The translations under genes and the position numbers were made by a program. The notes beneath the pieces are model-generated. The model saw only the letters and a list, made by a program, of their open reading frames with translations, had not been told where the DNA came from and ran no database searches. DNA of 64,000 nt from Eledone cirrhosa (Eukaryota). Of this stretch, positions 4,760 through 59,489 are shown piece after piece. Location: positions 11,842,001 to 11,906,000 of the forward strand of contig OZ024762.1 in assembly GCA_964016885.1 (NCBI GenBank), written 5' to 3'. Numbering within the stretch: position 1 is the stretch's first letter; the number at the start of each line of letters is the position of its first letter.

Positions 4760-4834
4760 GCTGTCTGATGAGATCATGACACTGGTTACGCGCAATCGCA
4801 TGGCCACTGTCATCATTGAAATATATATGACAGC
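4760..4834 (+). ncRNA. degenerate type I hammerhead ribozyme
   Basis: GCTGT-CTGATGA-long stem II (ATGACA...TGTCAT)-GAAA-TATATA-TG-ACAGC. Stem I is intact, but the cleavage triplet is AUG rather than NUH. Confidence 0.6.
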
Positions 4835-5036
4835 CTCATCAATAAAGGACTAAAATTTGCAACTACTTGGCATTTTATTATTATATATATTGTTATACTT
4901 TAGGAGGGTCATGTTGCCAATAAGAAACACACGCACCAGTTGCTTTCACTTCAATTTATTATATATTTATAAATTTATAAATTTATAAATTTCTGGTTGG
5001 TTGGTTGGTTCCACAACCAGATAGTTGTTTATATAT

Positions 5037-5081
5037 AGTCATAGTCCTTTCGTCACACACTCTGTGACCTCTTCAGTGACT
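5037..5081 (-). ncRNA. minimal type I hammerhead ribozyme
   Basis: Minus strand: AGTCA-CTGAAGA-G-GTCAC(agagtgt)GTGAC-GAAA-GGAC-TA-TGACT. Perfect 5-bp stems I and II; CUA cleavage triplet. Confidence 0.7.
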
Positions 5082-5738
5082 GGGGATTTCTAAACAAATT
5101 CAGAAACGAAATATATATATATATATATATATATACATACATATATAGTTGAGAATGGAGCTCCCGTTGAACGCTACCACCAAGTGCGAATTTCGCGCAG
5201 TTATTATATAGAGGGCAATCAATCCCAAAAGTAAGGTCTCCTTCCAAGGAAAACATGCGTAAAGATCAACGGATCACACTGGTTGCTCTCTGCATTTTGG
5301 TTCTTGAGGTTTCCCAAAGCACCATCCACAGGATTTTAATGGAAAAGTTGCAACATCGGAAGTTGCAATATCGGAAGGAGACCTGACTTTGGGGATTGCC
5401 CTTGTATATATATATATATATATATATATATGTCCATCTGTAAAATACCTGGCCACAGTCCTTGCGGGATCAAGGTACGACATGGCCAACTCTGGCCAGA
5501 TTTTTACCTCCTGGTGAGGACCACCCTTCTAACCCATGCAAGCATGGAAAAATTGACGCTAAATGATGATATATATATATATATATATATATATATATAT
5601 ATATATATATATATATATATATATATATATAGATAAGTATTAAGTTGTTAAACAATATTCGATGATTATGTCAAAGAATGAGTTTAATTGATTAAATCTT
5701 AACCATTTAACATCTCAGGGTATGTCATGTATCATTAT

Positions 5739-5791
5739 ATTTTGTCTGATGAGGACGTACTGTTGTACATCCGAAATATGTATAATAAAAT
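5739..5791 (+). ncRNA. minimal type I hammerhead ribozyme (family H1)
   Basis: ATTTTGT-CTGATGA-GGACGTAC(tgtt)GTACATCC-GAAA-TATGTA-TA-ATAAAAT. Full catalytic core; AUA triplet, predicted cut after 5784. Confidence 0.85.
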
Positions 5792-6317
5792 GTTATTGAT
5801 CAAAAGAACATCTATTTTATTAATACTTATATTTTAATATATATATATATATATATATATTACATATACATGTTTTGTCACCACCTTTCCATTACTTCTC
5901 ACCCTTCTGTATATATATATATCACGTGCACACCTGCATATACGTGTACTCAAACACACATGTAAATATATATATTCCCACATATACGCATGTATATATA
6001 TATACACACACACGTCAGGGTTGCAGCCATTTACTAACGATGTACTTAGAAGTTGAGTGACTAATTCTGTTATGAGACACACTATAACTGAAGCACCAAC
6101 CAACAACTTTGGTAAATGGCACACTAACATCTTACACCCTTAAACTAAAGTAAACAACCTTTAAGTGGAATCTTGACTCTTAATATCCTGTACCACATGA
6201 AACCACATTAGCGAGACACTCTTGTAAACTACAAAACTATACTATGATTGCATCACATTAAATATTAAAGTCTTTAATACAGGAAATTTCCACTACTGTC
6301 GATCCACTAATATTAGA

Positions 6318-6525
6318 TGGATTGGCAGTATTAGGAGAGTCGGACGCCATGCTTTGCAGCATAGAGTTGCGGCCCTTTATGATCTGAGTTCAAATCCTGC
6401 CAAGGTTAACTTTGCCTTTCATCCTTACGAGGTCAATAAAATAAAGTACCAGTAATGTACTGGGGTCGATTTAATCGACTTTCCCTTCCTCCAAAATTGC
6501 TGGCCTTGTGCCTATATAAGAAACC
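6318..6525 (+). mobile_element. tRNA-derived SINE (family B)
   Basis: TTGGCAG..TTAG head, GAGTTCAAATCC B box, CTTTGCCTTTCATCCTTACG.GGTC.ATAAAATAAAGTACCAG body; many copies in the window. Confidence 0.8.
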
Positions 6526-7328
6526 ATATATATATATATAGAGAGAGAGAGACATATATATATATATATTATATATATAGAGAGACATATATGCATATAA
6601 ATATATATATATATATATATATATATATATATATATATAGACATATATATATATATATATATATATATATATATATATAGACATATATGCATATATATAT
6701 ATATATATATAGACATATATGCATATATATATATATAGACATGTATGCATATATATAGATATATATATAGACATGTATGCATATATATAGATATATATAT
6801 AGACATACATGTATTAACATACAAGCATACAAACATCTACCTCCACACACATACAAACACAACAGCACAGTATTGTATTTGTTATTCATGCTAAACGAGA
6901 GAGGTAGGGAGAGGTAGAGAGAGAGAGATACTATATATATCCTCAGCTAAATATAACTGACCATGGCATCAGTGGATGCTTTAGATCTGAAATAATGTTC
7001 TCATTGATTTTGAATCTCTCTCCCCAACAGTCCAGATTTATACACACACATACATACATATATATATATATATATATATATATATATATATATATATATA
7101 TATATATATATATATATACACACAACCCATGCTAGCGTGGAAAAATGGACGTAAAACGGTGATGATGATGATGACACACATCTATATATATATATATATA
7201 TATATATACACACACACATACATAGTGTATGTCATGTTGACCTATTACATGTGTTAAAGCTGAGCACCAGCGATACCAGCATCACCATACTGACCACAAC
7301 AGAGCAGTTTGTCCTAACTTCCACCATA

Positions 7329-55876: not shown

Positions 55877-56117
55877 GATTATACAATGTTTGTGTATGAA
55901 CTGTGATGCTGAAAGGTAGCGAGATATGGGACCTAAATGAAAAAAAATCTGTGACAGAAGGAAAGAAATGAGGCGAACATACTCAGCTGGATGTGTAATG
56001 TTAGTGTGCATGAAAGACAGAACACAGATGAGATGTTATGTTGTTATAGCTCACACTTATGCAGGTTTAGCTGGCCTCCCCCAAGGTATATCTCATTGGA
56101 GGTGTCTTGGGTAATTT

Positions 56118-56480
56118 AATGATAGGGACCCCTGTCCTATCATCTCATTTCTACAGCTGAGTAAACTGGAGCAACGTGAAATAAAGTGGTGGTCACCTAA
56201 TCTGCCTGGTCCCATAACATAAAAACCTGTCTAACCCATGTAACCATGGAAAAAAATAGACATTAAACTATGATTTTATATATATGTATACATATGGAGG
56301 GACTGGAGTCCATATCATTCCACTGCAAAGTGGTCGTGGAGGTGCCACAGAAAAAAAGCATCCAGCACTCACTGTAAATGAGGTTGGTGTCAGGAAGGGC
56401 ATCCAGCTGTAGAAATCAAGCCAGAATCAGTTCTCGTCCCACCCTTGCAAGCAGGGAAAAGCGGACGTAAAATGATGATG
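56118..56480. mobile_element. SINE family A fragments (56118-56190 on -, 56295-56480 on +)
   Basis: Match to 31190-31412. Confidence 0.8.
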
Positions 56481-57249
56481 AAACTGGCTGTAACCAGTCG
56501 GTCAAACTGATGTTAAGGTATTGTCCTCAAAATAAATACTTTCAAAATCTCAGATTCGATATCATGCGAGATAATTATGTGAGGCAAAGCCTTTACCATG
56601 AAAATATAATAGTATATGTAGAGTAATGTAAATGCTAAAGGGTTATGGGTAAAGACCCCTGTCAGTCACCTAGAAAGTTCTCCTCTAAAGCAAGGTTTGT
56701 TTGTGGAGGGCCAGCAGTCACCCATACATACCAGTCTCCCCTCTCCGTGCCACTGGTGTTGTCCAAGAGAAAAGCTGACGCTGATAGAACTTGACACCAG
56801 TGACGTCGCAACTCCTTTCTACAACTAAGTGAACTCTGGAGCAACATGAAATAAAGTATCTTGCTCAAGGATACAACACAGCCCGGTCTGGGAATTGAAG
56901 AGATTACTTCTCAATTGTAAGCCCTATGTGTGTGTGTGTGTGTATACATAGATACATACACACGTGTGTTTCTCTCTCTCTATATATATATATATATATA
57001 TATCATCATCATCGTTTAACGTCCATCTTTCACACTAGCATGGGTTAGACGGGAATTGTCCCACTTGAGCCAAGATTGATCGGGTGACTGCGTCTCGCTC
57101 GTATAGAACTATCTGGCAGGTTTTCTACGGCTGAATATGGATATGGATATATATATATATATATAATATATATATATATATCTATGTATATATATATATA
57201 TATATAAACAATTATTGATATATATATATATATATATATATATATAAAT

Positions 57250-57375
57250 AATTGTTTCTACTTTTGGCACAAGGCCAGCAATTACCCAGTACATTACTGG
57301 TACTTTATTTTATCGACCCCGTAAGGATGAAAGGCAAAGTTAACCTCGCCGGGATTTGAACTCAGGTCATAAAGA
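57250..57375 (-). mobile_element. SINE family B
   Basis: Reverse complement of 21473-21597. Confidence 0.85.
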
Positions 57376-58075
57376 ATATTAATAAATGGAAGCTATCTTT
57401 ATAAAACCATATTTATTAAATAACTCATTGCTGATATATATATACATACACACACACACATGCTGGCGTAAACCATGAGGATATAAATATATAGCTATGA
57501 GACAAAAGGTCTTACCATGTTTATATAAAAAGGACACTGGACTCAACAGCACACCAACGAAGAAACTTAGTCAAACTGTCGTCTATTGTAATATAAAATA
57601 TATTTCACTCCATACCTAGTATTGAGTTCTATATTAGAAGATTAGTTTAGCAATGTATTGTACCAGTTCTTATCGAGTCGAATTATACCAGTATATGATA
57701 CACAACTAAAACACTACATGTATATATAAACCTACAAACGCACACACACATATATATATATATATATATATATATATATATATATATATATATATACACA
57801 AATCTATAAATATACACACAACCATTTAACGTTAAATGATGACAATGATGTATGCATGTGTGTGTGTACACACACATATATACACACACACACATCTATC
57901 CACATATACATATATATATATATATATATATATATACATACATACATGCACACAGATACATATATACACACATACAAAAATATAAACTTGTATGTATGTA
58001 TGTGTGTATATCTAGATGTCGAAACGGCCGGAGCTCAGCCGTCGGGGTCCTGACTCTTTTCCTATATATATATAT

Positions 58076-58166
58076 AAATAGCTTCTACAGGACTAGAACG
58101 GTTTCGTTCAAAAGAAATCATAGATTTCTCTTGAATGAAACAGTTCTAGTCCCGTAGGAGCCATTT
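58076..58166. repeat. imperfect palindrome, same family as 9876-10008
   Basis: ~44-bp arms around the loop ATA; GAATGAAACAGTTCTAGTCC shared with the 9876 copy. Confidence 0.85.
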
Positions 58167-59489
58167 CTATATTAAACTTGGTGTTTACACTATACAAATG
58201 TATTGAGTACCTTACTGCGTGTGTGACTTATTCAGTAAAAATCCCTAATCGAACAGTGCTATGGTTCAAAGACATTCCAGTCCAACCCAACCAACACCAT
58301 CCACCATACCACAGTATTTTTCCAGACCTAAGCGGCCACTGGACTCCATATCAGACAATCTCACATACCATTCCTTAGTCTTTAAGGATGTGATTCGAGG
58401 GAGGCATAGCTGCTGCTTCTAGTAGGTCGAGCGACCACTTACAGGCGCCCTTGTGTCGGATCGACTTTTTATGTGTGTGTACATACATATATATACATAT
58501 ATATATATATATATATATATATATATATATATATACATACACACATAATATATATATATATATATATATATATATATATACATACATACATACACACAAT
58601 ATATATATATACATATACACTCACACACGTTTATATTTCTGTATATGTGTATCTATGCATGTGCACATACATAGATAAATATATATATATATATATATAT
58701 ATATATATATATATATATATATATATATATACACACACACACACACATTCACGTTTATATTTCAAGCGTTAAACTAATATATTTCTTCCATATACTGTGC
58801 TGTTTGTTTTGTTATTACTTTTACATACATAGATATATATATATAGAAGTTCTATTTAAATTGTTGGGATACAACAAGCAAATATTTTTATAACTGATAT
58901 AAAGCACTCAACAAATTATTGGAGTAAGAATATATATATATATATATATATATATATATATATATATATATATATATGTGTGTGTGTGTGTGTGTGTGTG
59001 TAAGTGTGTATATACACGCTTATATTTGTGTGTGTATATATATATATATATATATATACACGTTTATATTTGTGTGTGTGTGTGTGTGTGTGTGTGTATA
59101 AGCAAAAGGGATATATATATATATATATATATATATATATATATATATATATATATATATACACACACACACAGAGTCCTGCAATCTGTAGTTGAAGATC
59201 AAAGTAGATTCTATATTCTCCAAGACTTCTATAAAGACACTCGAGACAAACGCGAGTGTCTTGCATATCATTACACAACACGTTATATGCACACACATAT
59301 ATATATATATATGTATGTATATATGTATGTATATATATATGTATATATATATATATATATATACATAGATAGATATAGATATACGTATAATACATATATA
59401 CATATAATACATATATATATGTAGGGAGATATACACATATATATAGATACACATACATATACATCACTATATATATATACATACACACA

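Follow-up and report, generated by a model that had tools for sequence, protein, structure and literature searches.

Penelope-like elements (PLEs) of the Hydra clade, described in 2021 (PMC8557442), insert at (TA)n targets; close to the 3' end, after a non-coding stretch, they carry a hammerhead with a helix III of 3 to 4 bp and U.U at the base of helix II. They include an octopus family, Hydra-1_Obim of Octopus bimaculoides. PLEs are known to leave truncated copies in inverted orientation that have a one-sided tail (PMC8557442; PMC3846280). The tail has been traced to two internal sites at which the reverse transcriptase (RT) starts on uncleaved RNA, both strands of the target being cut and extended (PMC11167929). 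A 2014 paper (PMC4209133) called solo hammerheads "probably related to truncated PLEs" and described opposite-strand pairs, a U3-A8 core and an extra base after A9. Animal retrozymes are defined by tandem units of 150 to 450 bp, each with a hammerhead (PMC7229834; bioRxiv 10.64898/2026.07.22.740005). Our comparisons with published work refer to parts of the cited sources. Here we analyzed the hammerhead-bearing blocks in a 64-kb stretch of animal DNA (the window, to which all positions refer; 38% GC, 27% simple repeats), which a sequence-only reading had taken for a non-autonomous, retrozyme-like system. The blocks are ordinary in kind, showing the known PLE arrangement, and unusually dense. 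They are, in our judgment, quite probably 3' ends, truncated on the 5' side, that derive from several autonomous Penelope-like families whose coding copies lie elsewhere in the genome; two of the block families (A and D) probably belong to the Hydra clade.

Hammerhead motifs of the window

About 20 blocks with whole or partial hammerhead motifs cover approximately 3.1 kb, or 4.9% of the window. Block edges were drawn by hand, and halves and ends were assigned by families, inverted units and similarity. Family A has members at 9876, 11727, 53038 and 58076, as well as tail-only pieces at 4350 and 13133. Family B comprises 5739, 31966, 43443 and 57380; family C, 5037, 32158 and 28310; and family D, 20725, 23364, 43255 and 58016, with 43350 as a probable member. 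Single-copy motifs were found at 4760, 23087, 33383, 33639, 33796, 44495 and 57562.

We scanned the window with a descriptor of the type I hammerhead (CUGANGA and GAAA boxes, helices I to III and an NUH cut site) in a strict and a relaxed form, using as controls 200 shuffles of the window in 250-nt blocks. The strict form detected three cores (5746+, 32022- and 43451+); 199 of the 200 shuffles yielded none and one yielded a single core. The relaxed form detected eight cores in seven insertions, the additional ones being 4765+, 5076-, 33644+ and 9948+/9936-, compared to none in 185 shuffles and a maximum of 2. Boxes, helices and NUH site are present above the shuffle level, with 33796 and 23087 deviating, and the hammerhead motifs are real. 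Complete motifs number eight if 33796 is included and nine with 23087 as well. The descriptor of the 3' half by itself did not exceed chance (37 matches versus 24.6 ± 5.0, maximum 39). Therefore, halves were counted only with the support of a family or an inverted unit.

Four of the five hammerheads previously called well formed satisfy the descriptor; the fifth, at 33796, fails both forms, with two basal mismatches in helix II (A.A and C.C) and with helices I and III able to form. The three listed as variant or decayed (4760, 23087 and 33639) match that description, 23087 having a 3-bp helix I and not passing the descriptor. One complete motif had been overlooked: 9948+, inside the 9876 palindrome, has a 9-bp helix I, a 4-bp helix III and a basal U.U in helix II. 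As in the PLE hammerheads of PMC4209133, the window motifs are mostly solo, occur in opposite-strand pairs, include a long helix II, an extra base after A9 and a U3-A8 variant, have a self-complementary helix III (entirely so in six of nine motifs) and are highly varied in sequence within one genome. They differ in the longer helix I of family B (8 to 9 bp), in a C.C mismatch four pairs into helix II and in the G10.1-C11.1 pair, found in just three of nine. Five motifs, 4765, 32022 (-), 43451, 33802 and 5746, have the C.C mismatch (as C.A in 5746) close to the helix II base, and in 4765, 32022 and 43451 it sits after three pairs; it is possibly a tertiary contact.

Rfam hammerhead models matched none of four targeted stretches at E values up to 10, and no hammerhead was among the 150 of 359 Rfam matches listed for the entire window; the matches were microRNA and snoRNA noise only. 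In eight motifs the monomer hammerhead fold is predicted to lie 0.7 to 8.6 kcal/mol above the minimum-energy fold, and ribozyme activity in place is doubtful. Under the NHH rule for cut sites, the 4760 motif, with G at N17, is expected to be inactive.

Inverted units, one-sided tails and Hydra-type ends

Of six inverted structures proposed earlier, 9876, 23364, 58076, 33383 and 44495 were confirmed, each with a hammerhead 3' half or more. Together with 5037 and 11727, these five are head-to-head units with outward-facing 3' ends and show the inverted 5'-truncated copy of endonuclease-positive (EN+) Penelope-like insertions. The sixth, 43289, is of another geometry, with 13/14-nt arms and (TA)24 at the center. 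Its left arm is in part element sequence that is found again in the 20725 copy, and the structure is more plausibly a pair of ends that meet at a single TA tract. A short inverted arm in the block at 5739 (11 AT-rich bases, judged by eye) was left out of the count, and the inverted repeats at 5220, 11533, 13768, 21362 and 38541, which look like miniature inverted-repeat transposable elements (MITEs) of DNA transposons, were set aside.

Three units (9876, 23364 and 58076) carry a tail on one side that is missing from the second arm and shared by other copies; it measures 64 to 66 nt in family A and 79 nt in family D. Since the one-sided tail is a PLE signature, it supports the truncated-PLE reading. 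The 3' ends fall at fixed points, lying 20 nt from the cut in two copies of family D and at +99 and +101 in two others, and at +10 to +22 or +86 in family A. The window copies run past the cut site, which indicates that the template RNA was uncleaved, as reported for an anole PLE (PMC11167929). Head-to-head arms, palindromic junctions, a tail at one end, two fixed 3' ends and an uncleaved template are all shared with described PLE insertions (PMC3846280, PMC11167929); in contrast to these, both window arms are often shorter than 70 nt, so that the whole insertion is a small palindrome. Arm junctions lie 28 to 62 nt before the cut, and the asymmetric units (11727, 33383, 44495 and 5037) fit, and favor, two priming events. 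Inverted arms, one-sided tails, fixed 3' ends and nearby (TA)n bear out the link to PLEs that had been drawn before.

The tails of families A and D share the box GTATTGAGTAC or close variants, with six exact matches in the window versus 0.11 expected by chance. We scanned public contigs for the pattern of core, GAAAC and tail box and obtained 50 loci, with 48 expected by chance. Just two of them, L026 and L067, adopt a hammerhead fold, and the same two alone have a CTCTRC box, absent from the search pattern, directly upstream of the tail box; this two-box motif occurs three times in the window. The remaining hits (46 of 48 genome-contig loci and both viral-contig loci) were chance matches. L026 and L067 are ends of PLEs whose open reading frames (ORFs) match Hydra-clade consensus sequences by eye. 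In L067, a 512-amino-acid open frame ends 155 nt before the core. In L026, the ORF C-terminus, the 3' untranslated region (UTR) and the hammerhead lie on one strand, ending at (TA)n, and this ORF-bearing arm abuts an inverted arm of 82 bp, whose start lies 47 nt ahead of the cut site and which is the sole carrier of the tail. L026 is a window-type inverted unit still attached to its ORF. Both pieces (L026, positions 1 to 4302, with three PLE pieces separated by TA runs; L067, positions 1 to 2263) are animal-type PLE DNA within contigs filed as bacterial, probably host contamination.

The tail box is common to families A and D, L026, L067 and, by eye, Hydra-2_Amil; it is not mentioned in the PLE literature examined, which includes part of PMC8557442. 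Of the 26 Hydra-clade rows in Craig's table, 14 by our visual count share with family A the U.U at the helix II base. Hydra-type hammerhead and tail box match at the motif level, with a weak profile E value (0.14), for families A and D and the motif at 57562, and are absent in families B and C and in motifs G, H and 4760. Unlike Hydra-clade PLEs, whose ORFs are recognized by RWK and DKT motifs and a CxCX5C linker without CCHH, the window has no PLE ORF, family D has a longer helix III and the tails reach 64 to 79 nt. A 13-nt motif from the end of Hydra-1_Obim had no match in the window, so the blocks are not Hydra-1_Obim itself.

A different origin for the palindromes would be hairpin repair at TA tracts after insertion, independent of retrotransposition. 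The window is rich in TA (230 runs) and 43289 is centered on (TA)24, as this would have it. However, the five other palindromes are centered inside the hammerhead instead of on TA, the end points of their arms are specific to the family, and L026 shows the same kind of unit in another animal; we find hairpin repair scarcely credible.

The statement that all blocks lie beside (TA)n stood for 14 of 17 cut sites, which are within 100 nt of a run of at least five units, and not for all 17. The median distance from cut site to TA run was 53 nt, compared to 509 nt for random unmasked positions (p ~1.5e-4). Other repeats also end near TA runs, including one family resembling short interspersed nuclear elements (SINEs) (5 of 6) and 3' ends of long interspersed nuclear elements (LINEs) (4 of 7 and 6 of 12); a piggyBac-like MITE seldom does (1 of 12). 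Targeting of (TA)n by the blocks is plausible and fits the Hydra clade, with the reservation that adjacency alone is no proof and the bias is not specific to the blocks.

Missing ORFs and the origin of the blocks

No Penelope RT or GIY-YIG ORF had been noticed in the window, and we found none. Pfam analysis of 216 window segments returned only LINE RT/PHD, a Pif1 helicase piece and noise. Because Pfam also misses the 512-amino-acid Hydra ORF of L067, this negative is weak, and a tblastn test was therefore made with five PLE queries taken from the L026 and L067 loci. The best E value was 0.46, and motif scans agreed. Since the RT and GIY-YIG ORF are absent, we do not class the blocks as whole PLEs. 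The stop codon lies 187 nt upstream of the cut site in both L067 and L026, whereas the 20 window arms measured reach only 17 to 167 nt upstream of the cut (100 to 160 nt in family B, 17 to 49 in A and 28 to 36 in D). As no block extends to 187 nt, the absence of an ORF is expected of truncated copies.

These short 5' sides, and the lack of tandem copies, speak against the non-autonomous, retrozyme-like system envisaged by the sequence-only reading. The blocks do resemble animal non-LTR (long terminal repeat) retrozymes in being short and ORF-less, with a type I hammerhead and a probable dependence on PLEs (PMC7229834; bioRxiv 10.64898/2026.07.22.740005), and they could be monomer offspring of such elements spreading via circular RNA. 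Type I hammerheads with a palindromic helix III would suit this origin; the position of the U.U pair is also seen in an axolotl retrozyme (PMC7229834), and retrozyme families may be largely monomeric (bioRxiv 10.64898/2026.07.22.740005). Conversely, the blocks have inverted arms and tails, which are PLE marks, in place of tandem repeats. A nearby direct hammerhead copy was found for none of 17 blocks, no tandem unit was among the 150 of 214 Tandem Repeats Finder rows listed, and no block is preceded by a direct repeat of its own 3' end. With the targeted Rfam searches also negative, we consider a retrozyme origin very unlikely. What the earlier reading had named as its own counter-case, pseudo-LTR debris of Penelope elements, is the likelier one.

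Families B and C and motifs G, H and 4760 could alternatively be dedicated non-autonomous elements, a counterpart of SINEs, with short transcripts, a start of their own and borrowed PLE enzymes. Non-autonomous PLEs are known (PMC8557442), some 20 blocks hold no ORF remnant, and family C includes near-identical pieces. In family B, helix II shows compensatory changes at three basal pairs, and all three complete copies have a 10-nt motif resembling a 5' splice donor, or a promoter, 18 to 38 nt upstream of the core (5718, 32069 on the minus strand and 43409). The chance expectation for this motif is 0.40, and three occurrences were reached in 1 of 100 shuffles; the copies carrying it have no acceptor before helix I. 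Against dedicated elements, 5' edges vary in every multi-copy family, the B copies fail to align upstream of the donor-like motif, and all block lengths fit inside a Hydra-type 3' UTR. We regard this alternative as unlikely.

For truncated ends of autonomous PLEs, the following course of events may be proposed. As PLE biochemistry suggests, a TA tract would be nicked in both strands by the GIY-YIG nuclease, and at each end the RT would begin on uncleaved RNA, using one of two internal sites. Synthesis of most cDNAs would break off after 50 to 250 nt, frequently within the folded hammerhead or shortly beyond it, and the hammerhead fold may influence where they stop. Two cDNA stumps would then join head to head, giving an inverted unit that has a tail at only one of its ends. 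The ribozymes would simply be carried along by insertion, since solo copies lack the dimer partner predicted by a palindromic helix III and palindromic units are predicted to fold as long hairpins (-105 kcal/mol for 9876, -110 for 23364 and -54 for 58070) that would lock their own ribozymes. Dimers of PLE hammerheads were reportedly treated by Lunse et al. in 2017. If transcribed, the palindromic units would supply double-stranded RNA. Of 24 sequencing-run entries listed, 20 contain some of this DNA, the highest share being 0.40, and none of those listed is RNA, which speaks neither for nor against expression. Cutting of host RNA by the hammerheads looks weak, because no host exon was recognized in the window, where intron and intergenic DNA are not distinguishable, and because of the predicted locking.

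Several observations weigh against truncated PLE ends. G10.1-C11.1, scarce here, is termed highly conserved in PLE hammerheads, and the tails exceed the 30 to 40 bp of published PLEs. That no longer, ORF-bearing copy occurs among about 20 blocks is also expected of dedicated short elements. The ORF-linked references come from other contigs, and none of the blocks is linked to a master ORF in the genome from which it comes. A profile of the L026 and L067 ends gave a best E value of 0.14 in the window, with all three matches on family A tails, and window profiles had no significant match in the L026 and L067 ends. Families B and C and motifs G, H and 4760 have no PLE-linked reference; all 17 loci with the family B pattern in metagenome contigs looked bacterial, had no hammerhead helices I and II, and were rejected. 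Finally, the criteria by which blocks are recognized bias the clustering of junctions within the hammerhead, and the symmetric palindromes (9876, 23364 and 58076) equally fit fold-back self-priming.

Density and other contents of the window

The features of the individual blocks are collected in Table 1.

Table 1. Hammerhead motifs, halves, ends and inverted units in the window
Feature	Position	Strand	Remarks
Hammerhead 4760	4760-4834	+	Type I; long helix II; self-complementary helix III; G at N17; no second window copy
Family C hammerhead	5037-5081	-	Extra base after A9; G-C at helix II base; 2-bp helix III; cut after 5042
Family C inverted arm	5090-5111	+	22/22 nt identical to family 3' end at 32158-32179; then (TA)12
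Family B block	5632-5837	+	Strict hammerhead; core 5746; cut after 5784; donor-like motif 5718
Family A inverted unit	9812-10008		Arms 9876-9940 and 9944-10008 (65/65); 64-nt tail on left only
Hammerhead of 9876 unit	core 9948	+	Complete; cut after 9986; U.U at helix II base
Family A unit	11662-11771		66-nt tail-only arm (-) and hammerhead 3' half (+); arms without overlap
Family D hammerhead 3' half	20725-20805	+	E 8e-12; absent from the sequence-only list
U3-A8 core variant	23087-23122 (core 23090)	+	Palindromic helix III; 3-bp helix I; weak; descriptor failed
Family D inverted unit	23285-23480		Arms 23364-23419 and 23425-23480 (55/56), centered in helix II; 79-nt tail on left only; tail box 23343
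Family B block	31926-32133	-	Strict hammerhead; core 32022; cut after 31974; donor-like motif 32069
Family C 3' part	32158-32290	-	No hammerhead; ends at (TA)12; 72 bp 98.6% identical to block from 4887
Inverted unit F	33383-33519	-	25-bp arms (25/25) around long helix II and hammerhead 3' half; cut after 33433; no core
Hammerhead G	33638-33689	+	Core 33644 with extra base; U.C at helix II base; self-complementary helix III; cut after 33683
Hammerhead H	33796-33863	+	Two mismatches at helix II base; 3-bp helix III; cut after 33857; both descriptors failed
Family D 3' half, long end	43157-43301	-	+101 nt from cut at 43258; tail box present
Decayed D-like end	43350-43399	-	Faces the 43157-43301 half across (TA)24; source of the 43289 "palindrome"
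Family B block	43401-43512	+	Strict hammerhead; core 43451; cut after 43500; 3' end displaced by LINE insertion
3' end of 43443 block	44431-44471	+	Past inserted LINE fragment
Inverted unit E	44495-44634	-	31-bp arms (31/31) around hammerhead 3' half; perfectly palindromic helix III; cut after 44560; no core
Family A short end	53044-53076	+	Helix III and helix I 3' strand
Family B 3' end	57376-57439	-	Without hammerhead
Hammerhead 3' half	57562-57629	+	Hydra-like helix III; tail box 47 nt past cut; single copy; tentative
Family D 3' half, short end	58016-58063	+	+20 nt from cut
Family A inverted unit	58070-58213 (unit 58076)		Arms 43/50 alike, centered in core; tail on right only

Eight complete motifs in 64 kb amount to a density of 125 per Mb. 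Extrapolated from this one selected window to an octopus-sized genome of 2.8 Gb, on the assumption that the window is typical, this would give about 350,000 hammerheads (130,000 strict); the axolotl has 126,247 (PMC7229834). Penelope elements are among the abundant cephalopod repeats (PMC8967140). PLEs make up 6.83% of the Octopus vulgaris genome, in 190 families, with 30 Penelope families recently active (PMC13282606), and the 4.9% block share of the window is near that figure. If the host is an octopus, as the kind of repeats in the window may suggest, master elements may be at hand and the blocks may already be in the O. vulgaris library. The words "hammerhead" and "ribozyme" do not occur in the parts of the text and supplement of this 2026 annotation (PMC13282606) that were covered. 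We found no hammerhead survey of cephalopods in the literature; the supplements of bioRxiv 10.64898/2026.07.22.740005 and file 1 of PMC4209133 may list mollusc motifs.

Such small inverted units preserve PLE insertion events as if in natural snapshots. With their two fixed starts, conserved tail box and junctions close to the ribozyme, they allow the formation of inverted copies by PLEs to be studied by counting in a single genome. A bolder combination deserves mention, to which we give a small chance: the host would be the most ribozyme-dense animal genome yet (more than 100,000 hammerheads), families B and C would be PLE-mobilized short elements with their own start, the folded hammerhead would be the site of RT stalling and cDNA joining, and the tail box, running from coral to host, would be a signal recognized by the RT or nuclease of Hydra-clade elements.

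The only long coding pieces of the window are non-LTR LINE ORFs with RT and PHD at 47026-49563 (-) and 41594-42823 (+), plus a Pif1 helicase fragment. In the LINE ORFs the PHD finger follows the RT, and 846 amino acids are uninterrupted; the best database relatives are 53% identical (75% in another comparison of LINE proteins), and relatives also have an AP (apurinic/apyrimidinic) endonuclease. A 5'-truncated LINE at 43513-44430, 92% identical to the copy at 46648-47553, sits in a family B block directly after the hammerhead. Beyond the right arm of unit E, 44635-44680 is a short tandem run of copies of about 18 nt of its own end. The Pif1 fragment (2B domain, 45760-46306, E 6e-8) is probably a Helitron remnant. 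MITE-like elements with terminal inverted repeats lie at 5205-5404, 13768-13995 (with 11 related pieces), 11523-11596 and 21362-21680; from their termini we take such elements to be mariner-like and piggyBac-like. A weak C2H2 zinc-finger match at 24461-24631 (E 0.005) resembles a LINE C-terminus more than a host exon. Tandem repeats of 123 bp, derived from a LINE C-terminal coding piece, occupy 14140-14578 and 16103-16622 in opposite orientations.

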